64,000 bases of DNA from assembly GCA_965140585.1 (NCBI GenBank), contig OZ223264.1, forward strand, positions 448,001 through 512,000, given 5' to 3'. Below are positions 19,857 through 58,449 of this stretch, piece by piece. A program made the translations under genes and the position numbers. This DNA is from Spirochaetia bacterium. Its GTDB lineage: Bacteria > Spirochaetota > Spirochaetia > UBA9216. The notes beneath the pieces were generated by a model that did not search any database, was not told where the DNA came from, and saw only the letters and a program-made list of their open reading frames with translations. Every line of letters starts with the position of its first letter. The stretch's first letter is position 1.

Positions 19857-21683
19857 ATGAAAAGGATTTTATCATTCAGAAGCAAAATTATCTTCGGGTT
19901 CCTGTTGATTCTATTGCTTTTGGCAATCGGGTTTACTGCAATTCTTTTTAACTGCAGAGACCTTGTTTATAATTCTGAGAAAATTTATAAAATCAGACTT
20001 GTCAGTATGGATTTTCTGATAGAAGCCGACAGGGATGCCTACCAGAGTGAACTTGCCCTTCTTCAGGCTGTTACAGAATACCTTGAAGGCGACACTGAAA
20101 CCTCAATGGCTCTGTACAGCGATGTGGAGGAAAACAGGGATCAGGTTCGGGAACGGTTTGATAAATTTGTTGCTGCATATACTTCGGATACGGGCAATAA
20201 AGCACCGGAGTCTATAGAATCCTATATTGCCGATTTCAACAAATATTATGAAAGCTGGATTAAAGCCCTGTCATATACCATGGACCTCATTCCTGAAGAT
20301 GCTGCTGAAGCCCTTGAATTTACTCAAACTGATGAACATAAACAACCTTTTGGTGATATGCGGAATGTTTTGGATGAGCTTACCAACCTTTCTCTTAGCC
20401 TGGCTGAAACCGAGTTCGGCAACGTGCATAGCATCTCTGTACGATCTCATACAACGATCTATATCATAATTGCTGTACTTTTTGTCTCCCTGATTATGGT
20501 TTACTTTTTTATTGATTTCTCAATTGTTAAACCGATAAAACATGTTACTGATCTGACTACTGAATTTTCAGAGGGCGACGGGGATCTCACACGGCGTATT
20601 CCTGCGGGAAAGGGCGATGAAATAGGAGTGATGAGCGATAATCTGAATGTCTTTTTCGACAGTATTACGCTTATAGTCAGAAAGATGCAGGAAGCCGTAG
20701 AGCTTAATACGAATTATAAAAACGATCTCCTCCATAATTCTGAAGAGGCAAGCGTTGCTTCCGTTGAAATCTCCGAAAATATCGGAAATATGAAAAATAA
20801 AATCAGTCTTCTAAATGATAATATCGTTTCCTCAACAGAGCTGATAGCTGAAATAGACGCCAGCATTAATGATATGGAGGCGCAGATTCTTGAGCAGAAC
20901 GGGATGATTGATGATTCCACTGCTGCTGTTACCCAGATGATAGCCTCGATAGCCAGTGTAGCGGATATTACACGTGAAAAAGCAAAGGCAATGACCGAGC
21001 TTGAGAATACCGTGAAAACCGGCGGAGAAAAGGTTGAGCAGGCGCTTTCTTCGGTGGAGCAGGTAAATAACAATTTAGGTTCTATAGGAGAAATTACCGA
21101 GATGATTAACTCCATTGCATCACAGACGAACCTGCTTGCCATGAATGCCGCTATCGAGGCTGCTCATGCAGGGGATGCCGGTAAGGGGTTCGCGGTTGTT
21201 GCAGATGAAATAAGGAAACTGTCAGAAACGACCGGTGAGCAGTCTAAAAGAATCAGTTCAATCCTTGAACTTGTTCTCCGCGAAATTACAACTGCCTATG
21301 ATGCGAATAAGAGCAGCAACGAGTCTTTTAATCAGATGATCAGCGATGTGAATATGGTTGCCGATGCATTGAGAGAGATTTCAGCCAGCACTGTTGAACT
21401 CAAGCAGGGGAGCGATCAGATTCTCTCAGCAGTAACCGGCCTTCAGGGTGTCTCCGGAGCGGTAATTGATTCATCAAGAAATATTCAGTCTTCCTCAATG
21501 AGGATTAAGGGCGGCATGGAACAGCTGAATGATATTTCAAGAGATGTTGTTGTGGCGATGGATGAAAGTTCTGAGGGCATGCGGGAAATTACAAGGGTCA
21601 TTATTTATCTTAAGGATGTTGCAGAAGATATCGGCAGCCAGGCAGAAATAATCCACAGCCAGGTGAACCGGTTTAAGGTATAG
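19857..21683 (+). CDS. Methyl-accepting chemotaxis protein
   Basis: TM-sensor-TM-HAMP; [34 protein letters not shown]. Confidence 0.96.
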
Positions 21684-21685
21684 GT

Positions 21686-23326
21686 CTAATAGCCGTCCGA
21701 CATTGAGCGGTTAATGTCTTTTTTATAGAGCTCATTGTAGACGAAGCCCCGGTTTTTCAGTTTGTCTCTAATCTCATCAGGGAAGGGCATGTCTCTCCAG
21801 AATATTCCTCTGACCTCGCGCTCGAGCTTCTGGGTTCCTTCACTTTCTCTGGTTATCCAGAGTATATAATCGTTGATGAAGCGTTCCCTGACATCGCCCT
21901 TCATCCTCTTTTCAGAGAACCACTGGTAATAATGACCGGTCAGGCCTTCTTCCATCCAGTAGTGCTGGGCTTTCTCCTTGGCAACCTGCCATCTCAAATC
22001 AGCCATAGCGGCAATAATTGCTGTGTTCAGGTCCTTTGAGTACATAGGGATGGCAATTCTGCCGCGGCTTGTTGCCCTGTTGTATTTTTCAAAGGGCTCC
22101 CAGCATATTCCTCTTTCCCCATAGCAGGGCACCAGAATAATATAGGGAACAATCCTGGTTGTTTCACGCTTGAATGTTCTCATGAACAGGCCCGGATCAA
22201 GTGATTCAACCTTGGCCATTTCGCATATTACGTTTTCCCTTGTTCCAAGGTTATACTGATCGGCATTGAAATACTGTTTCATCAGGATTGGAATATGATT
22301 GCCCTGCCGTCCAACACACATTTTCGCCATCTGTCTGATGGAACCGAACTCCTTGATTATTATAGAGGTATCGACATGCATTACCTCGCCAAGGCGTTCA
22401 GCCTTTTCTTCAAGAGATTTAAGCAGCTTGTCGTTTTTTTCAAGATCAAAAAACAGCCCGGAAATTTCCTTGTCCTGTTTCTGCAGATATTTCAGAATCT
22501 GGCTTATGTCGTAATGAGCACGTCTCTGTTCTGAATTATATGTGTTGTAAAGGTCCGGATAATTGAGGTTTCTTTCCTTGCAGCTGGCAAGTTTTATCTT
22601 TTCAAGCAGGAGGTTCTCATTGTCGGCAAGAATTTCCTGTTTTCGCTTGATAATTCCCATTATTGAACGGCTCTGGCCCTGCAGCTTGTCTATCTGCGGC
22701 CTGAGGTTTTCAGAGCTCTTCAGTTTTGTGGTCTTGACCTCATCAGTAATCGAGGCGTTTACTACACCGGTGGATATTTTATACAGCCATTCATCAAGGT
22801 AGTGAACAGGCTCCGGTGTGCTGTTTTCGACTATAACTTTGGCCAGCAGGTCTCTGGTTTCGGCTGAGATGATATTGGGAAGTACAGACCCGTATCGCAA
22901 TGTAAATTTTTTAGGATCAGGCAGACCGGAATGGATCTTCTTTGCTATGCTTTCAGCAAGATCCCAGTAGGCGGAAATCAGTTTACCTCTGATCATTGAG
23001 CGGTCTTTGGGGTTTTCGGTATTCATGTATTCGGTAAGGTTCTTATGAAAGCGCTGAGCTTCTTCACCCTCACCTGATAAAGCCTGTTTATAGTATTCCT
23101 TGTTCCGAAAAATCTGGCTTGGAGTATCTTCAAGAAATTTTGTTATTTTTTCAAATTCTGTGCTTGAAAAGCCGGGTTCTTCAGGCGGAAGCTCACTGCC
23201 CTTGCCGTCGTCGAAGAGGAGATCAAAAGAAGGACCCTCTTCATTGTCAAAGCCCATTAAATCGGCTATGTCAGGGTCCATCTCTCCTGAGAAAAGATTA
23301 TCGTTTTTATTATTTTCGATATCCAT
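21686..23326 (-). CDS. Hypothetical protein with central coiled coil
   Basis: Long ORF; the ORF-track start (23380) lies inside the tRNA, so the start is moved to ATG at 23326. Confidence 0.8.
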   Translation of the reverse strand: MDIENNKNDNLFSGEMDPDIADLMGFDNEEGPSFDLLFDDGKGSELPPEEPGFSSTEFEKITKFLEDTPSQIFRNKEYYKQALSGEGEEAQRFHKNLTEYMNTENPKDRSMIRGKLISAYWDLAESIAKKIHSGLPDPKKFTLRYGSVLPNIISAETRDLLAKVIVENSTPEPVHYLDEWLYKISTGVVNASITDEVKTTKLKSSENLRPQIDKLQGQSRSIMGIIKRKQEILADNENLLLEKIKLASCKERNLNYPDLYNTYNSEQRRAHYDISQILKYLQKQDKEISGLFFDLEKNDKLLKSLEEKAERLGEVMHVDTSIIIKEFGSIRQMAKMCVGRQGNHIPILMKQYFNADQYNLGTRENVICEMAKVESLDPGLFMRTFKRETTRIVPYIILVPCYGERGICWEPFEKYNRATSRGRIAIPMYSKDLNTAIIAAMADLRWQVAKEKAQHYWMEEGLTGHYYQWFSEKRMKGDVRERFINDYILWITRESEGTQKLEREVRGIFWRDMPFPDEIRDKLKNRGFVYNELYKKDINRSMSDGY

Positions 23327-23334
23327 TTTTGTTC

Positions 23335-23408
23335 TGGAGGTGAGGGGAATCGAACCCCTGACCTCGTGAATGCCATTCACGCGCTCTAGCCAACTGAGCT
23401 ACACCCCC
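23335..23408 (-). tRNA. tRNA-Ala(GGC), CCA not encoded
   Basis: GGGGGTGTAGCTCAGTTGGCTAGAGCG-CGTGA-ATGGCAT-TCACG-AGGTCAGGGGTTCGATTCCCCTCACCTCCA; cloverleaf with G3:U70 pair. Confidence 0.97.
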
Positions 23409-23457: not shown

Positions 23458-24453
23458 TCAGCCGGGTCTTCTAAAGTCTTTAAAAAGATAAATCCGTCTG
23501 TCTTCAAATTCCCCGTTCTTTTTAAACAGGTTAGCCATCCTGTCCGTCAGAACAGAATAGACTTCTTCGGTGATAGATAATGAATCGGGATCTGTGTATT
23601 TAGCCCCGAGATGATATATAGAGTTTATGGAATCAGAAATAATTGTTCCTGTTTTACCGCGGCTTTTGTAGGTAGTCTTCCCAAGATGCATAGCCGCTCT
23701 GAAACTTACAGCATCATGCATTCCGAACTCTTCAATACTCATTGTAAATCTGTTTACAAAGAGTTTTACTGCTGCGAGTACCGGGGCAGTTGTGTCTCCG
23801 TTATAGGGGAAAAGGGCAAGTCCGCCGTAATCGTTCCAGATCCATATCCTTCCGCCGTAGTCGGTTACGGTTCGCTCAACTGTTGTCTGAAATACCTGAA
23901 TCATCCGGGTGAGAAACTCGGTACCGGATTTCTTTTTCATTTCAGAGGTGATTCTTATTTCAGTATAAAGCATGAAGAATGTGTATTCCCGGCCGCTTCT
24001 AATGTTTTTCCAGTCAACACCGCTGTATGAAGGCTCTGAACATCCCTGCGGAGCCGGAGAGGGTTCTTTGTCTATAAATTCAGGATCCTGTGCCCTGAAC
24101 TCAAGATACTGTTTAAGTCTTGCCGCTTTATATCCGCTGCGGTACATATCTGAACTGATGTAATCAAAACCTTTAAAGATGATTCCTGCCGGATCTTCAA
24201 TCTGATTTTTCCGGTCTACTACCAGCAGGGGGAAGCCTTCTTTTTTAAGAATGTATTTAAGATCTTTTAACGCCGACGTATCGCTGCCCGAGGCGTAATC
24301 GTATACATAAATATTATCTGATGATGGAGCTTTCAGAATTTTACGCATCTCATTAAGCATGCAGTAGGTGAGAGTATATTCTTTTTTCTTTTCAAAGCTC
24401 TCAAAACATTTGAGTTTGCCTTTTATATCTGAAAAAATAATGATTTCCGGCAT
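23458..24453 (-). CDS. Class III nucleotidyl-cyclase-like protein lacking metal-binding Asp residues, with N-terminal receiver-like domain
   Basis: C-terminal half follows the class III pattern (GGRIWIW..GGLALF, FRAAMHLG, TIISDSIN..HL); paralogous to the upstream gene. Confidence 0.72.
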   Translation of the reverse strand: MPEIIIFSDIKGKLKCFESFEKKKEYTLTYCMLNEMRKILKAPSSDNIYVYDYASGSDTSALKDLKYILKKEGFPLLVVDRKNQIEDPAGIIFKGFDYISSDMYRSGYKAARLKQYLEFRAQDPEFIDKEPSPAPQGCSEPSYSGVDWKNIRSGREYTFFMLYTEIRITSEMKKKSGTEFLTRMIQVFQTTVERTVTDYGGRIWIWNDYGGLALFPYNGDTTAPVLAAVKLFVNRFTMSIEEFGMHDAVSFRAAMHLGKTTYKSRGKTGTIISDSINSIYHLGAKYTDPDSLSITEEVYSVLTDRMANLFKKNGEFEDRRIYLFKDFRRPG

Positions 24454-25388
24454 CAGTCTGCTAACTCCAGTTTATAGCGGTAATATACCCTGTTATCCTT
24501 TGCCTTGAAGCTGTTGAACTGTTTGGCTGTAAGCGGTTCAAGCATTACGTTGACGGCCTGGCTGATTGTGACAGAGTCTGTTTCCGCCTGGTTTTTCTCT
24601 ATGGAATTAACCTTTTTAACCGTTTCCGCCTGCTGTATCTCCTCGCTGCCGGATGTGTATTCAAAGGGTCCGCTGTGCACTGCTATTCTCACATGGATGC
24701 CGTCATCTACCGGACAGTCGGTGTGGTTATAAAGAAAAAGTTCATGGATTACTTCAAGAGCGGCCAGTACAGCTGTTTCATTCATATTCCCGAAACAGAA
24801 GGCGGCAAGTCCGCCGTCACCGTCCCAACCCCAGACACGGCCGTTTCTTTTATCAACAGCACGGGTTACAATGCCGCGGAGTGTCCGGTAGGATTCCTTG
24901 ATCTGTTCGGCTCCGTGTTTTCTTACAAGCTTTGTATTGCCGGCAATGTCTATCCGCAGAAATGCGATTGTATACTCAACATTGTTTTTAAGAGTTCCCC
25001 AGTTTCTGGTTTTTCTGACTGCAGGGTTTTCCAGAAACATTCTGCTGCTGGGGTCATATATATATCCCAGCTGGTATACGGAGTTAAGTATCTGCCTGAG
25101 ATAGGGGATAGCGATCTTTCTGCCGGCGATGCCCTTTCCCTGGTCACTGAAATTTATCAGCAGCAGTACGAAATCAAGAAAGAGGTTGCAGGCTATGATG
25201 TCTTTTACTACCTGACGTGCCGCGTTCTGGTTCGGTATGGCTACGCTTGATGGGATTCCTGTTCTCTGGTGAAGATCATAACCGGGAATTAATCTTCTGG
25301 TGAGCGTCGACATAGTCCTGTTGTCCATGGACTGCGATAACGCCTTAACGCAAAATGTGATAGTACTGTTGGGGATACGCATCATCAT
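24453..25388 (-). CDS. Class III nucleotidyl-cyclase domain protein with uncharacterised N-terminal domain
   Basis: IDIAG and WDGDG Asp pair, VRIAVHSG; start is one of three tandem ATGs at 25382-25388. Confidence 0.82.
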   Translation of the reverse strand: MMMRIPNSTITFCVKALSQSMDNRTMSTLTRRLIPGYDLHQRTGIPSSVAIPNQNAARQVVKDIIACNLFLDFVLLLINFSDQGKGIAGRKIAIPYLRQILNSVYQLGYIYDPSSRMFLENPAVRKTRNWGTLKNNVEYTIAFLRIDIAGNTKLVRKHGAEQIKESYRTLRGIVTRAVDKRNGRVWGWDGDGGLAAFCFGNMNETAVLAALEVIHELFLYNHTDCPVDDGIHVRIAVHSGPFEYTSGSEEIQQAETVKKVNSIEKNQAETDSVTISQAVNVMLEPLTAKQFNSFKAKDNRVYYRYKLELAD

Positions 25389-25445
25389 TATTAAAACGAT
25401 AATCAATAGTATAGTCAAGAACCTGTTTTATGTTAAAATGTTGCA

Positions 25446-28184
25446 ATGAAAAAAATCGAAGAATTGCTGATTCGCGAAGGTATAGCCGCCGGGGCTGTTT
25501 ATGTTTTTCCTTCAGAGGCTGCTGTTGTCAGCTGGAGGATGAAGGTTCTGAAGCTTCTCCAGGCTGATGCTGTACGCAACGATGTGTTTTTATCATGGGA
25601 CAGTTTTAAGGAATCGGTTACCCTGCATGACCGGATTGAAAGACCTGTAAACTCTATTCACCGCAAGCTTTTCTGTTCAGATCTGCTTGCCCGTAATATC
25701 TCACAAGCCCCGGTCTACAGATATATTCTGCCCTCGGGATTCGACGAGGTCGCTTCCGGATTTGCCGACCAGCTTGTCAGGGTTCTTCCGGGGCTTAAGC
25801 GTTTTGCGGAAGCCTTTCATGAGAATGAGTCTCTGTTTCGTGAAGCAGCCGGTGACGGTCTATCCGATGACTACATGAGGCTGTATGAGGAATATTCTTC
25901 GGTTCTTGAGAAAAACAGCCTATTTGAGCCCGGCTGGGATATGCCGGATATCAGTACACCGGATAAAAAATACTACATAATATTCCCAGAACTTATCGAA
26001 GACTTTGAAGAATACCGGGCAGTTTTGTCCGCATCCGGATGCAGCTTTATTTCGGATGTCGGAGACGTAGATTGCCCCTACCATTTTTATGACAACTCGG
26101 TAATTGAAGGCGACGAAGTGATTGCCGGAATTTCCAGCCTGCTGCAGCAGGGGCTGCGATACCAGGACATAGCTGTGACATGTCCGGATGAGGAGCTTGC
26201 TGCCTACATGATTTCCAAAGCCGGACGTTACGGGATTCCGCTGAGTGTAAGAAGCGGTACACCGGTCGGTGAGCTGCCCGGAGGCCGTCTGCCCGAACTT
26301 ATCCGTTCCTGCTATTCAGGCAGCTTTGATATAGCATCAATGAAAGTGCTTCTGCTGTTCCGGGCCTTTCTCTGGAAGGAAAAAGAAACCGCAGATGCTC
26401 TTATCCGTTTCGGAATTGAGAACCGCTGTCTGCGCAACTTCGGCCCGGGAAGTGATGGTGATGTATGGGAGCAGCGGCTTACAATCATGAAGAGGTGGGA
26501 TCTGAAGGATTTTTACCTCAAACTTAAAAAGAGAATTACAGCAGTTGTAAAAGCCGGCAGCCTGAAAAAACTAAGCGATGAGATCCAGATATTCATCAGC
26601 ACTTTCCTTGAAACGGATGAAGAGCTCTGGGATTTTGAAACCCTTAAGGTTTTTCAGAGAACAAGAGAGATTCTTTCCTCGCTCCAGGATGCCGAAAACG
26701 CCCTTGAGGGAATAAGTATCAGGGATCCGCTGGGGCTGTGGATCGAGGTGCTGAAGGAAAAAATCTATGTATGCCAGGCTGATTCAGAAGCCATTCCGCT
26801 GTACAGGTACAGGGTGTCTGCGGGTATCAGGCCGAAGCATCACTTCATTGCCGGGCTCAACCATGAGAACTCGGCCGTTGTTTCGGTACCGCTGCCATTT
26901 TTAGGTGATCAGATAAGAAGGGGATTGAAGCTCCAGGAAAATAATATGACCGAAGCCTTTCTTCGAGTCTATTCAAAAAGTGGAAATTCTCCGGTAATTT
27001 CAGGGTCGGCTGAGACCTTCTCCGGTGTTGCCCTTGCCCCGGCATATTTTATTTCAGCCGGTTCTGTTGAGAAAATGAATTTTTCAGAAGGTTCCGGTAA
27101 TATAGGGCAGGCCGGTGCCGGGGTTTCAGATCCGGAACAGCTTGAATCCTCATGGTGGTACGGAGACTCTGAGGTTGACTGGCCGCTTACGAAGTCACAG
27201 GCCGACGGTTTTGATTACTCGGCAGCAACAGGACTGCTTCCGGCTTCCGATGATTTTACCTTCACCCCTCTGAAGGATTCTGAACTTTCCGAAGCCTGTA
27301 TAGCAAGGCGCTACGGTGAAGAGCTGAATCTGAAAATATCGGCCACAACACTCAACCGCTGGACGAACTGTCCCTACAGTTATCTGCTTGCTGATTTACT
27401 CGGAGTCCGTGCGGATGAGTATGTCCTGCAGGTTGAAGACCCCTTCACCGACGGAGAGCTTCTTCATGAAATTCTGGGTCATTTCTTTAGTCTGCTGAAA
27501 GAGTCGGGGCAGGCTTTTTCGCTTGAAAAGCGGGATGAATACCGCGAAATGATAAGGGGCTCAGCCCGGAAGGTCTTTGCGGACTGGGAAAAGAGGGAGA
27601 ATTACTTCTTTGGCCCGGCCTGGGATACAGCCTGCAGAAAGGCTCTTGAATACATGTCCCGGATGCCTGAAGCTGAAGGTGCCCTTTATGACGGCTATAC
27701 TCCGGCACTGATCGAAGACTGGCTTGAGTACGAGATTCCGGGTGAGAACATAAAAGCTGCGGGCCGTACGGACCGGATATCTGTAAAAGCGGGCAGGGCT
27801 GCGGTTATCGACTACAAGCGGAACTGGAAAAAGAAGAAGACCGCAGACTATTTCAGCCTTGATGAGTCGGGAGCGCTGATGAAGCCTTCGATAGGATACC
27901 AGATACCATTTTACATTATCCTTGCCAGGCAGGCCGGCTTTGAGGTTGATTCAACATCCTATTACAGCGTGACCTCTGCCGAACATTTTCAGGTTTCAGG
28001 TGAGGCTGGAATTCTTGATGCCGAACAGGTAGAAGCGCTCTGCCGCCTGACGATGAATGAAATAATCAGGATGGGCAAATCGGTAAGAGAGGGCATTTTC
28101 ACTGCACCCGAACGCTGCGGCGGCTGTGATTTTTACCCCGTCTGCCGCAGAAAATATGCAGTTAAGTTTGGAGGCCGTAAATAA
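25446..28184 (+). CDS. addB: AddB/RexB-like inactive helicase plus PD-(D/E)XK nuclease
   Basis: SATTL..W..CPY, GRTDRI, IDYK and C-terminal CGGCDFYPVC Fe-S staple; coupled to a UvrD-type gene. Confidence 0.85.
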   Translation: MKKIEELLIREGIAAGAVYVFPSEAAVVSWRMKVLKLLQADAVRNDVFLSWDSFKESVTLHDRIERPVNSIHRKLFCSDLLARNISQAPVYRYILPSGFDEVASGFADQLVRVLPGLKRFAEAFHENESLFREAAGDGLSDDYMRLYEEYSSVLEKNSLFEPGWDMPDISTPDKKYYIIFPELIEDFEEYRAVLSASGCSFISDVGDVDCPYHFYDNSVIEGDEVIAGISSLLQQGLRYQDIAVTCPDEELAAYMISKAGRYGIPLSVRSGTPVGELPGGRLPELIRSCYSGSFDIASMKVLLLFRAFLWKEKETADALIRFGIENRCLRNFGPGSDGDVWEQRLTIMKRWDLKDFYLKLKKRITAVVKAGSLKKLSDEIQIFISTFLETDEELWDFETLKVFQRTREILSSLQDAENALEGISIRDPLGLWIEVLKEKIYVCQADSEAIPLYRYRVSAGIRPKHHFIAGLNHENSAVVSVPLPFLGDQIRRGLKLQENNMTEAFLRVYSKSGNSPVISGSAETFSGVALAPAYFISAGSVEKMNFSEGSGNIGQAGAGVSDPEQLESSWWYGDSEVDWPLTKSQADGFDYSAATGLLPASDDFTFTPLKDSELSEACIARRYGEELNLKISATTLNRWTNCPYSYLLADLLGVRADEYVLQVEDPFTDGELLHEILGHFFSLLKESGQAFSLEKRDEYREMIRGSARKVFADWEKRENYFFGPAWDTACRKALEYMSRMPEAEGALYDGYTPALIEDWLEYEIPGENIKAAGRTDRISVKAGRAAVIDYKRNWKKKKTADYFSLDESGALMKPSIGYQIPFYIILARQAGFEVDSTSYYSVTSAEHFQVSGEAGILDAEQVEALCRLTMNEIIRMGKSVREGIFTAPERCGGCDFYPVCRRKYAVKFGGRK

Positions 28185-39416: not shown

Positions 39417-40729
39417 AAGTATTGGGAATTATAAGTTCTGACGGGAACCTTAACAGAAAAATTATGCAGGCTTTTGAGCTAAGCGGGGACAGGTACTATC
39501 GCCTTGAATTTATTTCAAATGATGACGGCATCTATGAATTTATCAACTATGAGCTGCCCGAAATAGTCATAATTAATTTTTCTGATCCCGGTATCAAAGT
39601 GAACGATTTGATTCACCGGCTCGAACAGGATATCTGGCTTCATCATTTTGGAATTATAGGGCTTCATGACCAGGAGCATATTGATGAAGTTGATCTGCTG
39701 AACAAGCTTAAGAATATAAATGTCCTTACCCTCCTGAGCACTTTCAGGCTACGCTCCCATTTGATGAAGAGTGTTGAGATCATCCGGGAGAACTACCAGA
39801 TAATCTTTCAGCGCGGATTTGCGTCGAAGATCATGGAAAGCACCTCCGGATCCTTTTTAATTCCTAATGATATTCTGTCTGTTCCAATTTATGCCGGAAT
39901 TGCCGCGACAACACTCTCCCAGTCCGGTAAGATTGACACAGACTCTAAAATGCACCTTCAGCTGGCACTTGCCGAGCTTATAGTTAACGGAATTGAACAT
40001 GGAAACTGTGAGCTTTCGTATGATGAGAAGACTGTCTTTATGGAAGACGGCGGCAATATTGTTGAACTGATAGCAAGAAAATGCGAAAACACGGAAATTG
40101 CGGCAAAACGGGTTCACCTCGACTGGGAGATGCATAATAACTATACATGTTTTACCATCCGCGATGAGGGAAGGGGTTTTGATGTCTCCGACCTTAATGA
40201 AAAACTCAAAAATCAGGATGAACTGTCCCTTCACGGACGCGGTATCAGAATGGCCATGGCGCTGTGCAGGGAACTATATTATAACAAAACCGGAAATCAG
40301 GTCACGCTCATAATAGACCATGTTGAGCAGGAGGCTCAGCCCTTCCCGATACGGTTTAGAAAAGAAGAGATTCTTGAAGTAGAGAAGGGTGATATAGTTT
40401 TCAGAGAAGGTGAAGAAAGCGACTTTCTTTATTATATAGTTTCCGGTAAATATTATGTCTATCATCGCCGAAAAAAAGTAGGTGAGCTTAATCAAAATGA
40501 TATTTTCATGGGTGAGATGTCATTCCTTCTGAGCAACAAGCGGAACGGTACCATCAAAGCAGCGGAAAAGGGTAAACTCATCAAAATATCGAGAAAGGCT
40601 TTTGTTACCCTTGTTCGTGATTATCCCTATTATGGTATCTTTCTTTCCAGGCTTCTGGCAAAAAGACTTGCCAGATCCAATGATCAGAACGCCCAGCTTA
40701 CGGAGAGACTGAAAAAATTTGAAACTTGA
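39413..40729 (+). CDS. Receiver-like + RsbW-type HATPase + cNMP-binding domain protein
   Basis: ELIVNGIEHGN, IRDEGRGF, HGRGI; C-terminal FREGE..D.LYYIVSG...GEMSFL...R. Confidence 0.85.
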   Translation: MKVLGIISSDGNLNRKIMQAFELSGDRYYRLEFISNDDGIYEFINYELPEIVIINFSDPGIKVNDLIHRLEQDIWLHHFGIIGLHDQEHIDEVDLLNKLKNINVLTLLSTFRLRSHLMKSVEIIRENYQIIFQRGFASKIMESTSGSFLIPNDILSVPIYAGIAATTLSQSGKIDTDSKMHLQLALAELIVNGIEHGNCELSYDEKTVFMEDGGNIVELIARKCENTEIAAKRVHLDWEMHNNYTCFTIRDEGRGFDVSDLNEKLKNQDELSLHGRGIRMAMALCRELYYNKTGNQVTLIIDHVEQEAQPFPIRFRKEEILEVEKGDIVFREGEESDFLYYIVSGKYYVYHRRKKVGELNQNDIFMGEMSFLLSNKRNGTIKAAEKGKLIKISRKAFVTLVRDYPYYGIFLSRLLAKRLARSNDQNAQLTERLKKFET

Positions 40730-47308: not shown

Positions 47309-48862
47309 CTAAATCGCGACATTATATATTTCAATCGGTTTAACCTTGCCTTTGACCGTTACAGGAGAACGTTTTTCAAGTTTGAAACGGTCATCAAGCA
47401 GGGCTTTTGTTGATTCAGTAATAATTATTTCATTTGCACCGGCAACACCCTCAAGTCTTGCAGCAAGATTCACTGTGTCACCGATGACTGAATAATCCAT
47501 TCTGCGTGAACTGCCAAGGTTTCCGGCTACAAGGGGGCCGGTATGCATGCCTATACCAATCTTAAGAGATCGTGCCGGCCCTGTAAAGAATTGACGCTGT
47601 TTGGATGCTACAAGTCTCTGTATTGCTACCGCGCACTCCACCGCCTTTACGGCGTCTTCTCTCTCATCTGAAAGAGGCACTCCCCATGCCGCCATAATGC
47701 AGTCGCCTATGAACTTATCAATATATCCTCCGTGCTGAATGACAAGCTCTACGGCTTCACGGAAATATTCGTTCAGAATATCGATAATAACTTCCGGTTC
47801 CTGTCCTTCGGAGAAGGCTGTGTATCCCCTGATGTCGGCAAATAATACGGTTGCGGTCTTTTTGGAGCCGCCGGGATTTACAAGTTCCGGCTGTTCCATG
47901 AGGTGATTGACTATCTCGTGGGAAAGATACCTTGAGAACATATCCTTTATAATCCTGCGTTCTTCGACGGCGATGTTTACTCTGTTTTTCAGTTCTTTTT
48001 CTGCACTCTGATCTTTGAAGATCAGGGTAAGTCCCTCTTTCCGGCCCCTCTTGGTCTGAAGCGGTGTAATATTCAGGGAGTAATCGATGTTTGTCTTTTC
48101 TCCCTTGAATATACCTTCGAGGCCGAGGATTATGCTGCTGTTCTTTTCAGATTCGGAGATTGTATTTATGACTCTGGGAGTAAGTTTCTTTTTGAAGAAG
48201 TCTTTCAGGTCACTCCCGATATGCCCGCTGTTGAGGCCGAGCTTTTCCGCAGCGGCATCGTTGAAATAGTGAATGCTGCCGTTGGGATCGGTTGTGATTA
48301 GGAAGTCTGACATCGATGTAAAGATTCCTTCCTGGTAACGCTCCATGCTTTCAATTACCCTGAACTGTTCCTGCAGCTGGGAGTATAGAATCGAGTTATG
48401 AAGCATCCCTCCGGTAAATTTAGCCGCTGATTCCAGGAAACGGAAACGGTCGCCCCGATAGAAGCCCTCGGTATCCGAGTTCAGAACCAGAAGGCCTATC
48501 CTCTCACCGGGAGCATTCAGCGGAAGGATTATTCCGCTGTTCATTACTTCTGTAAGCAGAACCTCAGCGAAGGGACTTTTTTTACGGCTGTTTAGAACAA
48601 CTGCCTCTCCGCAATCTTCCAGGAAATTAACAAGCTCTGATTTCCGGTTCAGTTTTGCGGGAATCTCGTGCCAGCCCCTTTTGTATACAAGTTCGGGATC
48701 CTTATCAGGCTCCGGATATATGAAGAGCCCCGCAAGTTCGGAGCGGCTGATATCAAGTGTCTGTTCCACAAGTATTGAGAAAAGTGATTTCAGACGGTTC
48801 TCACGAGCCAGTGCAGAACATAGTCTTACTGTTTCATCTAATAGCTGATTTTCTTTTACCAT
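47309..48862 (-). CDS. GAF-PAS class III adenylate cyclase
   Basis: ADIRGYT, DKFIGD, DYSVIGDTVNLAARLE and VKGK; full catalytic set present. Confidence 0.93.
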   Translation of the reverse strand: MVKENQLLDETVRLCSALARENRLKSLFSILVEQTLDISRSELAGLFIYPEPDKDPELVYKRGWHEIPAKLNRKSELVNFLEDCGEAVVLNSRKKSPFAEVLLTEVMNSGIILPLNAPGERIGLLVLNSDTEGFYRGDRFRFLESAAKFTGGMLHNSILYSQLQEQFRVIESMERYQEGIFTSMSDFLITTDPNGSIHYFNDAAAEKLGLNSGHIGSDLKDFFKKKLTPRVINTISESEKNSSIILGLEGIFKGEKTNIDYSLNITPLQTKRGRKEGLTLIFKDQSAEKELKNRVNIAVEERRIIKDMFSRYLSHEIVNHLMEQPELVNPGGSKKTATVLFADIRGYTAFSEGQEPEVIIDILNEYFREAVELVIQHGGYIDKFIGDCIMAAWGVPLSDEREDAVKAVECAVAIQRLVASKQRQFFTGPARSLKIGIGMHTGPLVAGNLGSSRRMDYSVIGDTVNLAARLEGVAGANEIIITESTKALLDDRFKLEKRSPVTVKGKVKPIEIYNVAI

Positions 48863-55218: not shown

Positions 55219-58200
55219 ATGATCAGGATTAAAAATATAATTTTCGGGTTAATGATTGCCGGATGCGGACTTCTTGTGGCTTTTCTGGGCTTTAATATTG
55301 TGCAGAGTACTGTTTCACTAGGCAGTTTTTCGGCAGGAAGCAATACAGTGAAAGTTCCTGAGGGCAAAACAGTCTCTCTGGACAGCCGTTGGCTGTTTGT
55401 AAAAGATGAGCTTGTCGCTCCTGAAGATGCTGCAGTGAGATTCAGCAGTGTCACCGGTACAATTTCACCTAAGATTTTTCCTTCAGGATCCGGAAGTCTG
55501 TATCTTATTCTTGATATCGATGAATCCTGTAAGAATCCGGCGCTTCTTATTAATCCTGTTTATTCCGCTTTTTCAGTTTATATTAATGGTAATTATGCCG
55601 GCGGAGCCGGTTCGCCTGCAGAAAATTACTCCGGTGAAACGGCTTCAACCGATACAATGATTATTCCCTTTCAGACCGACTCCTCAAAGATTGGAATTCT
55701 GATCCATATATCAAACTTTTCACATTACTATGGCGGAAGCCTGCTTAACTGGGTTGAGCTGGGCCGCTTTGATAATATTGTAAAGCGGGAACGCTTCGGC
55801 AAGATTCTTGATTCGCTGATGTTTTTTATGATGCTGGCCTTTGCGGTGATGCACTTTATTAATCAGTTTTACCAGAAGAAAAGGGATTACAGCATGTTTT
55901 TCTCTCTATTCTGCTTTTTCTATTCGCTCTATGTTCTTACAACCGGCAGAATGCTGCTTACCGCCATAATCCCGCAGATTCCACTCGGGCTGGTTTTCAG
56001 GCTTGAGATTATTTTTCTGATATTTTCAGTTCCTCTGCTTGCAAATTATTTCCGTTCGCTTTTCAGTTCCGAGGTTCCGAGATGGTTTGTCATAATTCTG
56101 CAGACAGCGGCTATACCCTTTACTCTGGTGATGGCTGCAGCGCCCCTCTGGATTACTGTCTATGCGGCAAGGGGCTTCATTGCCGTACAGGCCGCAGCAT
56201 TTCTTTTCCTGCTGATCTTCATCATAAGAGCTGTAGCTGCCCACCGGAAATTCAGCAAAATGTCGCTTTTAAGTTTTTCAGTCTTTTTTCTTGTTATGCT
56301 GAATGACGGATTGATTCTGCTTGGTCTGATACATTCGATAAAACTGATATGGGCAGGAGTCTTTCTCTTTATCCTTCCTCAGACATACAAGGTTATAGTA
56401 GACGGATTTACCGATCTGAGAGAATTTCAAACACTGCATATGCAGCTTGCAGCAGTGACAAAGCAGAAAGATCTCTTCTTTTCAAAGAATTCCGATGAAC
56501 TTGCCAAACCAATACATAATATAGTTGAATTGGGTGAGAGCCTGCTGCGAGGCTCAATAGGTCCGCTCAATTCCGAGCAGATAGCAACATCCTCGCTTAT
56601 CGTCTCAAACGGAATCAGGCTTTCCAATATGGTCAACGATCTTGTGGACTTTACCGTCATTAAGGAAAAAACGGTTAAACTCAATTTCGGATCTGTGGAT
56701 CTGTTCAAGGTTTCCAGAAAGGTTATAAGCAGCTGTGACGCCCTTGTTGCAGTTCGGGATCTCTCTCTGATGAGTGAAATTAACAGAGATGATCCTTTTG
56801 CCTACGGAGATGAACGGCGTATTGAGCAGATTCTCTATAATATAATCACAACCTGTATCAGGCATCTTACCAGCGGAAGTATAAATATATCCGCAGATTT
56901 TACAGATACTCATGCTGAACTCAGGATTAAGACTGAAGGCTGCAGTATGGCCGAAGATGCAATAATGCAGCTTCTGAATGTGGAAATCTCAATGTCGAAG
57001 GATAATGAAAGCGAGGATATGGGTGAGATGAGTCTCGCTATCGCATATATTCTGGCAGAGATGCATTCCAGCAGGGTTAATGTTGAAAAGCAGGAGGATG
57101 GCTCGGTTCTGTTCAGCCTTAAACTTGAAAAGTGGGCAGGAGAGGAGCCTCTGAGTGACGAGGAATACCTTGAGATGGATGCACTCATAAATTTGCAGCC
57201 CGTCTTTGATGAGGTTACATCTGACAGGGATATTGAAGTGCTTCTTCTCGGAAAGGATGTAGAAGAACTTCAGATCATGAAAAGCCAGCTCGCCTCAATG
57301 AATTATACGGTAATCCCGATGTTCAACGGCAGAGATGCACTATCCCGCATAAAAAGCGATCCGCCTAATCTGGTAATTGTAAATGTGAAGCTTACGGATA
57401 TGAGCGGATATGATGTCTGCAGCGAAATAAGAACAGTGTATTCAAAAGATGCCCTTCCTGTAATTCTTGTTATGAATAAGGAAGACATGAGTGAAATGAT
57501 GGAAGGGCTAACCTCCGGGGCTAATGACTTCCTTTCTCGCCCGTACATTCAGGAGGAGTTCCTGACAAGGGTAAATACTCATCTCCAGCTTTCAAGAATC
57601 AGCACTGTATACAGCCGCTTCGTTCCAACGGAGTTTCTGCGTTCACTGGGGTCGCATAATATTGTGGATGTTGAACTCGGTGATCAGGTACAGAAGGAGA
57701 TGACAATCCTTTTTGTTGATATCCGTGCATTCACAAACCTGTCTGAAAATATGACTCCGGAGGAAAACTTCAAATTTATCAATTCCTACCTGAGCCGCTT
57801 CAGCCCCATGATAACCAATAACGGAGGGTTTGTTGACAAATACATCGGTGATGCCATCATGGCGCTTTTTCCCAACAGTCCAGAAGATGCAATCAGAGCA
57901 GCAAATCAGATGATTGAGCATGTGGCTGTATACAACGGACATCGTGCCAATGTCGGCTACCGTGCCATCAATATCGGAGTCGGTATCCATACCGGTAACA
58001 TGATTCTGGGAATCATCGGTGATGAAACAAGAATGCAGGGAACCGTTATATCGGATGCTGTAAACCTTGCCAGCCGTATTCAGGATGTTACCAAGCTCTA
58101 CAAGGCCAATGTCGTAATCAGTCAGGAAAGCTTCATGAAAATTGATGATATGATGAATCATAACTTCCGCTTTCTAGGCCGTGTACGGGTAAAGGGCAAG

Positions 58201-58449
58201 GACCAGGCTGTAGCTCTATTTGAAATATTTGACGCCGATACCGAGGAACTGAGAGAGCTTAAGAACAATACCAAGACTGACTTTGAGCAGGCAATTATGA
58301 AATTTTCACTGAAGGATTTTGATGGAGCGCTGGCACTTCTTCAGAGAGTCATGGAACTCAATCCAAATGACAGTACTGCTCAAGTCTTTATTGAACGTAT
58401 AGAAAAAATGCAGATTGCTGAAAAGAAGAACTTTCTTACTTCTCTTTAA
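55219..58449 (+). CDS. 7TM-DISM-like sensor + degenerate His kinase + pseudo-receiver + class III adenylate cyclase
   Basis: Seven TM segments; SDELAKP; GDERRIEQILYN; IVNVKL; VDIRAF, DKYIGD and TVISDAVNLASR. Confidence 0.9.
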   Translation: MIRIKNIIFGLMIAGCGLLVAFLGFNIVQSTVSLGSFSAGSNTVKVPEGKTVSLDSRWLFVKDELVAPEDAAVRFSSVTGTISPKIFPSGSGSLYLILDIDESCKNPALLINPVYSAFSVYINGNYAGGAGSPAENYSGETASTDTMIIPFQTDSSKIGILIHISNFSHYYGGSLLNWVELGRFDNIVKRERFGKILDSLMFFMMLAFAVMHFINQFYQKKRDYSMFFSLFCFFYSLYVLTTGRMLLTAIIPQIPLGLVFRLEIIFLIFSVPLLANYFRSLFSSEVPRWFVIILQTAAIPFTLVMAAAPLWITVYAARGFIAVQAAAFLFLLIFIIRAVAAHRKFSKMSLLSFSVFFLVMLNDGLILLGLIHSIKLIWAGVFLFILPQTYKVIVDGFTDLREFQTLHMQLAAVTKQKDLFFSKNSDELAKPIHNIVELGESLLRGSIGPLNSEQIATSSLIVSNGIRLSNMVNDLVDFTVIKEKTVKLNFGSVDLFKVSRKVISSCDALVAVRDLSLMSEINRDDPFAYGDERRIEQILYNIITTCIRHLTSGSINISADFTDTHAELRIKTEGCSMAEDAIMQLLNVEISMSKDNESEDMGEMSLAIAYILAEMHSSRVNVEKQEDGSVLFSLKLEKWAGEEPLSDEEYLEMDALINLQPVFDEVTSDRDIEVLLLGKDVEELQIMKSQLASMNYTVIPMFNGRDALSRIKSDPPNLVIVNVKLTDMSGYDVCSEIRTVYSKDALPVILVMNKEDMSEMMEGLTSGANDFLSRPYIQEEFLTRVNTHLQLSRISTVYSRFVPTEFLRSLGSHNIVDVELGDQVQKEMTILFVDIRAFTNLSENMTPEENFKFINSYLSRFSPMITNNGGFVDKYIGDAIMALFPNSPEDAIRAANQMIEHVAVYNGHRANVGYRAINIGVGIHTGNMILGIIGDETRMQGTVISDAVNLASRIQDVTKLYKANVVISQESFMKIDDMMNHNFRFLGRVRVKGKDQAVALFEIFDADTEELRELKNNTKTDFEQAIMKFSLKDFDGALALLQRVMELNPNDSTAQVFIERIEKMQIAEKKNFLTSL

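Follow-up and report, generated by a model that had tools for sequence, protein, structure and literature searches.

The 64,000-nucleotide stretch analyzed here (positions 448,001 to 512,000 of contig OZ223264.1 from a Spirochaetia bacterium, hereafter the window) carries two adjacent minus-strand genes that probably encode the two halves of one enzyme. Gene A (24453..25388) is an open reading frame (ORF) of 311 residues counted from its first ATG, and gene B (23458..24453) is an ORF of 331 residues that also starts with ATG. Taken together, the evidence suggests, with a probability of roughly two in three, that A and B form an obligate heterodimeric nucleotidyl cyclase of the class III type, assembled head-to-tail in a 1:1 ratio with one complete catalytic site. 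We favor a 1:1 A:B dimer because the two proteins are always-adjacent paralogues that hold invariant, reciprocal sets of catalytic residues. In the mechanism that we propose, A and B would be the products of one two-gene operon with coupled translation. A would take the role of the C1 domain of mammalian adenylyl cyclase (AC) or of the alpha subunit of soluble guanylyl cyclase (sGC), contributing the metal-binding Asp147 and Asp191 and a DIxGN(S/T) phosphate loop. B would take the C2 or sGC beta role, contributing Asn277 as the ribose and transition-state residue, His281 at the position of the canonical Arg, and Thr268 with Ser273-Asp274. Of the two pseudo-symmetric sites in the A:B dimer, one would then be complete and catalytic and the other fully degenerate, and A:A and B:B dimers would each be missing one half of the site. 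The head-to-tail arrangement of the catalytic dimer, the cyclization of a nucleoside triphosphate, and regulation by the N-terminal domains are all steps that we infer. A first-pass annotation of this DNA had already put forward a 1:1 heterodimer with one active site, and gene adjacency, reciprocal residues, a complete solo paralogue, single clades for A and B, and a model of the complex all lend that proposal support at the level of sequence and structure prediction. The gene positions in the annotation hold, as does the overlap that it placed at 24453. The two genes share one base in a minus-strand TGATG junction, where the stop codon of A (24455-24453) runs into the start codon of B (24453-24451). 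The motifs that it quoted are all present in the translations, namely IDIAG, DGDGG, and AETVKKVNS in A and TEI, NDYGG, and TIISDSINSIYH in B.

The C-terminal domains of A and B are paralogous. A single BLASTP comparison (E 5e-18) finds 26% identity between B 147-322 and A 129-302 in an alignment of 179 residues that follows a common EYT / GR(V/I)W.W / GGL..F / R.A.H.G pattern; the likeness, which the first-pass annotation had also picked out, lies far beyond chance. AlphaFold2 models, built from alignments of relatives, have mean predicted local distance difference test (pLDDT) scores of 94.2 for A and 88.9 for B. When the models were compared with the PDB by Foldseek, the top matches of both proteins were class III adenylyl, guanylyl, and uridylyl cyclases only, with template modeling (TM) scores normalized to the target of at most 0.81. 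The best match of A is 6sir (E 6.6e-10), and Ma1120 is also matched, at a target TM of ∼0.8; the best match of B is the guanylyl cyclase Cya2 (2w01, E 6.7e-10), with Ma1120 and the cUMP synthase 7r65 also found. Sequence searches of the PDB give a fainter version of the same result. As a single sequence, A matches 3mr7 weakly (E 0.004), and a profile of 23 A relatives matches 3mr7 at E 2.3e-7 and Ma1120 at 5e-5, as well as, weakly, the cytidylate cyclase 8jsf; the single-sequence search with B returned nothing relevant. A search of NCBIfam gave no usable match to either protein, and B is labeled "hypothetical protein" wherever any source names it. Because both models are confident and the top structural matches are all class III cyclases, the C-terminal domains of A and B are, on the strength of these models, cyclase homology domains belonging to a very divergent clade.

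The catalytic residues are divided between the two families. The cyclase homology domain of A spans residues ∼135-311 (24456..24986, minus strand) and carries a DI(A/V)GN(S/T) loop, with the codons of Asp147 and Asp191 at 24948-24950 and 24816-24818 on the minus strand. In the 120 A relatives listed, Asp147 and Asp191 are each retained 120 times. The position of the transition-state Asn, Lys258 in the window protein, is never Asn (0/120) and is instead occupied by K in 71, S in 12, R in 9, I in 9, E in 7, and others; the Arg/His position, Ser262 in the window protein, is E in 59, D in 26, R in 7, H in 4, and others. The corresponding domain of B spans residues ∼150-331 (23461..24006, minus strand) and has Glu165 at the first Asp position and Tyr209 at the second. 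Among 21 B relatives, Glu165 is retained in 20, and the second position is Y in 17, F in 3, and T in 1, with no Asp. The signature segment of B, GKTGTIISDSINSIYHLG (residues 266-283; 23605..23658, minus strand), holds Thr268, Ser273, Asp274, Asn277, and His281, and in it G266, K267, T268, G269, T270, S273, D274, S275, N277, H281, and G283 are each present in 21 of 21. Thus, the two claims that opened this line of analysis, that A keeps both metal-binding Asp residues and loses Asn and Arg, and that B loses the Asp pair and keeps Asn with His in the Arg position, are borne out across both families.

The same division holds in a wider table of 52 family proteins from 33 loci (32 fetched from genomes of the phylum plus the window), which takes in a distant subclade only ∼20-30% identical to the window proteins. 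All 21 A-type proteins have the first Asp and the GDG motif, 20 of them are without the Asn, and none has the His. The 19 B-type proteins all carry Asn together with His; the two Asp residues never occur together, a D being found once at the first position and twice at the second. In a 37-row B alignment that includes the distant pairs, S273, N277, and H281 are invariant, and T268 and D274 are conserved in at least 90%. One locus, L005 (2567-4505, minus strand), holds a very divergent pair in which the upstream protein has both Asp residues and the downstream protein has Asn and His plus an Asp at the second metal position; the branch that leads to this pair in the tree is long.

A third type of protein, which we call S, shares the N-terminal domain of A and occurs without a partner. 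In the 12 S proteins that we collected, the first Asp, the GDGG motif, and a T-G-x-I-x-S-D-x-I-N...H-L-E-K segment are all found in one chain. Both Asp residues and the Asn are present in 12 of 12, and the Arg position is occupied by H in 10, R in 1, and K in 1, an interchange that fits a His doing the job of the canonical Arg. The complete residue set of S likewise fits a split of A and B from a complete ancestor. The genome from which the window comes has one A/B pair and no S. We built a rooted tree of the cyclase domains by a quick maximum-likelihood method, taking as the outgroup six canonical cyclase domains encoded in that genome and leaving out the L005 pair. The Shimodaira-Hasegawa-like approximate likelihood ratio test supports the whole family at 100, the A proteins at 95, and the B proteins at 98, each as a single clade. 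The placement of S is unresolved in this tree, with A and B as sisters weakly supported (60). Because A and B each form a single clade, and the trees of the two contain the same two major subclades, the A and B types are each judged from sequence to have arisen once and to have traveled together since. Under the mechanism set out above, the pair would have arisen once from a complete, S-like cyclase within this divergent family, presumably homodimeric, and would have been co-inherited across many spirochaete families.

The distribution of the two genes is consistent with this history. In a sample of 301 genomes of the phylum, the A profile matches 93 and the B profile 74 at E<=1e-5, and the pair is present in most genomes of several families (16 of 17 and 9 of 9, for example). 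We counted adjacency over the best 100 A matches and the 74 listed B matches, with cross-matches on A or S proteins removed. B lies directly downstream on the same strand for 58 of the 59 A matches at E<=1e-90 and for 71 of the 75 at E<=1e-60, and in most of the fetched pairs the longest ORFs overlap or directly adjoin each other. The exceptions among the 75 are an A at a contig end, an S-type protein (locus L027), a further match from the same genus as L027, and a solo A from a complete genome, where an orphan B and, next to it, an A remnant lie at a distance of 64 kb. The remaining unpaired A matches (E 1e-36 to 1e-56) are, as far as examined, mostly of the S class. The expectation that homologues would co-occur as adjacent pairs with the same reciprocal pattern is therefore upheld, with 58 of 59 paired and the pattern kept in the distant pairs. 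The complete genome just mentioned (G080:C1:2165626-2166816 and 2230363-2231277, locus L028) contains an intact pair in addition to the solo A and the distant B. There, the B that lies 64 kb off is preceded by a 125-residue remnant matching only the C-terminus of A, and it looks like a rearrangement split a second pair.

Several results, given in this paragraph and the next, weigh against an obligate A:B cyclase. Neither protein matches PF00211, or any other Pfam family, even at E 1, so the alignment of both proteins to PF00211 that was suggested at the outset fails for each. The canonical Arg is replaced by His in B, and the base-selecting Lys is missing. As the first-pass annotation had stated, the adenine-selecting Lys is absent from both genes: its position is Gly187 in A, a variable residue placed by a profile alignment to 3mr7, whose Lys shares that column, and Ile205 in B by the family alignment. 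Neither of the usual base-selecting pairs (Lys with Asp/Thr for ATP; Glu with Cys/Ser/Gly for GTP) is present in A/B. Thr270 is invariant in the close B relatives only (21/21); the position is E, Q, N, H, or K in distant B proteins and R, S, M, Q, or N in S. The conserved Thr is instead Thr268, two residues upstream, and of the B residues first proposed to be catalytic, Asn277 and His281 stand family-wide but Thr270 does not. Finally, no fused A-B protein was found among 3028 candidates of 546-2000 residues, a search that gives weak evidence. One way to read such losses is that A and B are both pseudoenzymes, using the cyclase fold as a scaffold for binding a nucleotide or other ligand within a signaling complex and making no cyclic nucleotide. 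The failure to match PF00211, the His in place of the catalytic Arg, and the missing base-selecting residues all speak for this, as does the presence of nine canonical class III cyclase domains already in the genome. We nevertheless consider it quite unlikely, since it is precisely the catalytic residues that A and B have retained, and without variation, and S keeps the full catalytic set. One of six S proteins passes the Pfam cutoff for PF00211 (28.2 vs 21.9 bits), and the other five score 13.6-21.2 bits.

The model of the complex supports an A-B association, but not a shared active site. The cyclase domains of A (120-311) and B (140-331) were folded together, each with its own alignment, and the interaction prediction score from aligned errors (ipSAE) was 0.70 (0.70, 0.70, and 0.73 in the individual runs) vs 0.17 for the best control. 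The runs share at least 88% of their contacts, and the pLDDT of each partner is at least 86. Of 80 solved complexes, 58 reached the mark applied to ipSAE, as did 2 of 110 mismatched pairs; these figures apply here only approximately because the A-B model was built with our own alignments. We note that class III dimers have already been solved, so that a pass could partly reflect likeness to them. The predicted interface involves residues 208-223 (helix alpha3), 284-292, and 306-311 of A and residues 222-241 (alpha3), 245-248, 303-311, and 325-331 of B, and 57 of the 59 contacts connect these parts, which are alpha3, the C-terminal tails, and the stretch from alpha5 to beta7 in both chains. The catalytic residues all lie outside the interface, as do the beta2-beta3 strands and the beta4-beta5 arm, the elements through which solved class III cyclases dimerize (PMC2576301). 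We compared this arrangement with solved dimers by lists of secondary-structure elements. In solved class III dimers, beta5 and extended parts of beta1 and beta4 make up a small sheet that lies against beta2 and beta3 of the partner, according to the available portion of PMC2576301, and a beta-hairpin flap wraps onto the partner, as the excerpted account in PMC6005667 describes it. An A:B dimer can therefore be modeled, as the earlier analysis had proposed, with a clear score and passing controls, but the interface obtained is not the canonical catalytic one. The conservation of helix alpha3 is unusually high in the two families (in A, H215 and N221 show no variation; in B, E241 shows none, and N234 and R235 show almost none), and because of this the modeled alpha3 contact may be real and specific to the family.

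This geometry raises the alternative that A forms a catalytic A:A homodimer with a weakened site and that B is a non-catalytic regulator docked on the outer alpha3 face of A, relaying a signal from its receiver-like domain. The outer alpha3 face is roughly where G-proteins bind mammalian cyclases, and in the model B sits on alpha3 and the C-terminus of A, away from the catalytic cleft. The unusual conservation of alpha3 in both families and the retention of both metal-binding Asp residues in all 120 A relatives also speak for such an arrangement. However, it leaves unexplained why A never has the Asn (0/120), and why B holds Asn277, His281, Ser273, and Thr268 invariant even in very distant pairs and has lost exactly the residues that A keeps; an A:A site would also be without both transition-state residues. 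For these reasons, we regard a catalytic A:A homodimer as unlikely and retain the A:B heterodimer as the preferred interpretation.

The product of an A:B cyclase is not predictable from these data because Gly or Ile stands where the Lys would be, the residue at the second specificity position differs among relatives, and pyrimidine cyclases are among the nearest models. Among family models, the best-scoring are those of PycC in PADLOC, at E values of 6.9e-10 for A, 7.5e-6 for B, and 2.3e-5 for S, with the matches on A and B covering the first half of the domain only. This kinship with the PycC models hints at a non-canonical product. In a speculative extension that we hold to be doubtful, the composite site with His for Arg and no purine-selecting pair would make such a product, for example a cyclic pyrimidine nucleotide; the dead site (Glu165 and Tyr209 of B with Lys258 and Ser262 of A) would be an allosteric pocket; and the alpha3-alpha3 contact would be a second, family-specific interface that joins A:B units into a larger complex under the control of the receiver-like and helical N-terminal domains. 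A more specific proposal, that the pair is a Pycsar-like pyrimidine cyclase acting against phages, can draw on the rank of the PycC models, on the appearance of the cUMP synthase 7r65 and the cytidylate cyclase 8jsf among the Foldseek and profile matches, and on the two consecutive cyclase domains of clade A PycC, as described in the portion of PMC11224242 available. Canonical adenylyl and guanylyl cyclases, on the other hand, match about equally well. No effector gene accompanies the pair, and no neighbor is conserved across the 33 loci, where a clustering of all ORFs gave sporadic neighbors only. Unlike a patchy defense island, moreover, the pair is inherited in step with its host families. 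With neither an effector nor the inheritance pattern of a defense system, we reject the Pycsar reading as very improbable.

The two N-terminal domains, which would regulate the A:B heterodimer, differ from each other. That of A (residues 1-125; 25014..25388, minus strand) consists in the model of helices over residues 7-106 followed by a beta hairpin at 109-120. It has no Pfam or NCBIfam match, and the ESM Atlas returned no usable match. These results agree with its first description as helical and of no recognized family. A phmmer search of 1.84 billion representative sequences found 72 matches to it, most of them in proteins of ∼290-330 residues with the domain at the N-terminus and the remainder mainly shorter pieces, and the domain appears, on this sequence evidence, to be specific to the A/S family. 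The N-terminal domain of B (residues 1-122; 24088..24453, minus strand) has a receiver-like (beta-alpha)5 order in the DSSP assignment of the model (E3-7, H15-23, E27-31, H33-40, E48-52, H58-70, E76-79, H88-93, E97-99, H101-106), with Asp52 closing strand 3. Between this domain and the cyclase domain runs a disordered linker (126-145). D52, D80, D87, D97, and Y98 are invariant in the 21 close relatives. The B family profile matches the response regulator 8svz weakly (E 0.021), and clusters labeled "response regulator" in the ESM Atlas score 0.85 against the domain, which we take as a lead only. Canonical receivers have a Thr or Ser at the end of strand 4 and a Lys at the end of strand 5. When the sequence of B is read against the model strands, the residue after strand 4 is Asp80 and there is no Lys after strand 5 (DYISS), and the domain thus appears to be receiver-like without the usual Thr/Ser and Lys. 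The receiver-like character proposed earlier for this N-terminus therefore stands as far as the (beta-alpha)5 order and Asp52 are concerned, but there is no match to PF00072 in Pfam and the usual Thr/Ser and Lys are seemingly absent.

The division of an active site between paralogous cyclase domains is a hallmark of animal adenylyl and soluble guanylyl cyclases. In transmembrane AC (tmAC), one domain gives the two metal-binding Asp residues, and the other gives the Asn, the residue at the Arg position, and the base-side residues. The dead pseudo-symmetric site of the animal enzymes serves as the forskolin or allosteric pocket and underlies regulation. A and B would divide the site in the same way as mammalian C1/C2 and sGC alpha/beta, the latter having paralogous domains with one catalytic and one degenerate pseudo-symmetric site, according to the part of PMC3591389 available. 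In contrast to tmAC, which is one polypeptide, and sGC, whose subunits are large and multidomain, A and B are two small, separate bacterial genes. They further differ from the mammalian enzymes in having His for Arg and neither the Lys/Asp nor the Glu/Cys base-selecting pair, in their family-specific helical and receiver-like N-termini, and in the non-canonical predicted interface, and the tree suggests that their split arose independently inside a divergent spirochaete clade. The homodimeric enzymes Ma1120, CyaC, Cya2, and 3mr7 have the same fold and provide the best structural and profile matches, and S has a complete residue set as they do. Whereas homodimeric bacterial class III cyclases have all catalytic residues in each chain of a symmetric head-to-tail dimer, A and B carry half each. 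PycC is also a bacterial class III-like enzyme, making non-purine cyclic nucleoside monophosphates (cNMPs), and its models score best for A and B, but PycC adjoins an effector gene and acts in phage defense, and the A/B pair has no effector. The statement in the first-pass annotation that bacterial class III cyclases are normally homodimers needs a partial exception for clade A PycC, whose two consecutive cyclase domains make it the closest bacterial case that we found in print (PMC11224242, as far as the excerpt goes). Clade A PycC is, however, one polypeptide, and A/B are two genes. GcyB and GcyC of Rhodospirillum centenum, adjacent bacterial genes for putative guanylyl cyclase subunits, were considered as a precedent and set aside. 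By their description in the available part of PMC4681086, they are annotated as hypothetical proteins and termed non-catalytic subunits, and that part describes no reciprocal half-sites. In the full-text literature, subscription reviews and supplements aside, we found no bacterial two-gene class III pair with reciprocal half-sites.

If the A:B heterodimer is correct, the same solution as in animals would have been reached here with two small, soluble, separately encoded bacterial proteins, and a complete solo paralogue persists in related genomes. The pair would offer a simple system for asking how and why homodimers split into obligate heterodimers, which residues favor hetero- over homo-pairing, and how a degenerate site comes to be used. 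B would also be recognized as one half of an enzyme, and the assignment points to a spirochaete signaling module whose product may lie beyond the usual specificity rules.

The remaining observations concern the locus itself. Gene A has a longer frame (24453..25418, minus strand) with a TTG start, and its true start may be the third ATG, judging from homologues that begin MR(I/V)P. A promoter-like site upstream of A (25408..25436, minus strand; TTAACA, a 17-nucleotide spacer, and TATACT; 10 of 12 matches in a consensus scan) is weak evidence, the number of such sites in the region being not above shuffled expectation. Directly past the stop codon of B lies a tRNA-Ala(GGC) gene (23335-23408, minus strand), preceded by a promoter-like site of its own (TTGACA, 17 nucleotides, TATATT at 23448-23420, minus strand; 11 of 12 matches), which suggests that A and B form a self-contained bicistron. 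Beyond it is a 564-residue ORF (21686-23380, minus strand) with a GTG start. Because this longest frame overlaps the tRNA-Ala gene, its first codons are probably not real, and translation probably begins at a Met ∼18 codons inward. The encoded protein belongs to no family in Pfam, NCBIfam, or PADLOC, where it gave chance-level matches only. The gene has no counterpart in the other 32 loci with a pair or paralogue (BLASTP at 1e-6) and would thus not be part of the module. On the other side, a divergently oriented gene (25446-28184, plus strand) encodes a possibly AddB-like protein of 912 residues whose C-terminal part is a PD-(D/E)XK nuclease domain (E 3.1e-20); by the same BLASTP threshold it also has no counterpart in the other 32 loci. 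The neighbors that do recur include PNP_UDP_1 phosphorylases (4 loci), methyl-accepting chemotaxis proteins (MCPs; 5 loci), and SpoIIE-type phosphatases (4 loci). PNP_UDP_1, of the nucleoside phosphorylase superfamily, adjoins gene A in the distant subclade (L013, 2992-3852; also L014, L017, and L019), and the five loci with MCP genes near the pair or S include the window (19857-21683). Elsewhere in the window, canonical PF00211 cyclase domains are found at 47324-47863 (minus strand) and 57688-58209 (plus strand), scoring 115.9 and 76.1 bits within open frames of 519 and 1080 residues, and a cNMP-binding domain is found at 40376-40621 (plus strand). The genome as a whole has 9 matches to PF00211, the canonical class III cyclase family, and 16 to PF00027, the cNMP-binding family, which indicates that cyclic-nucleotide signaling in this organism is extensive and that the A/B pair would add to it.

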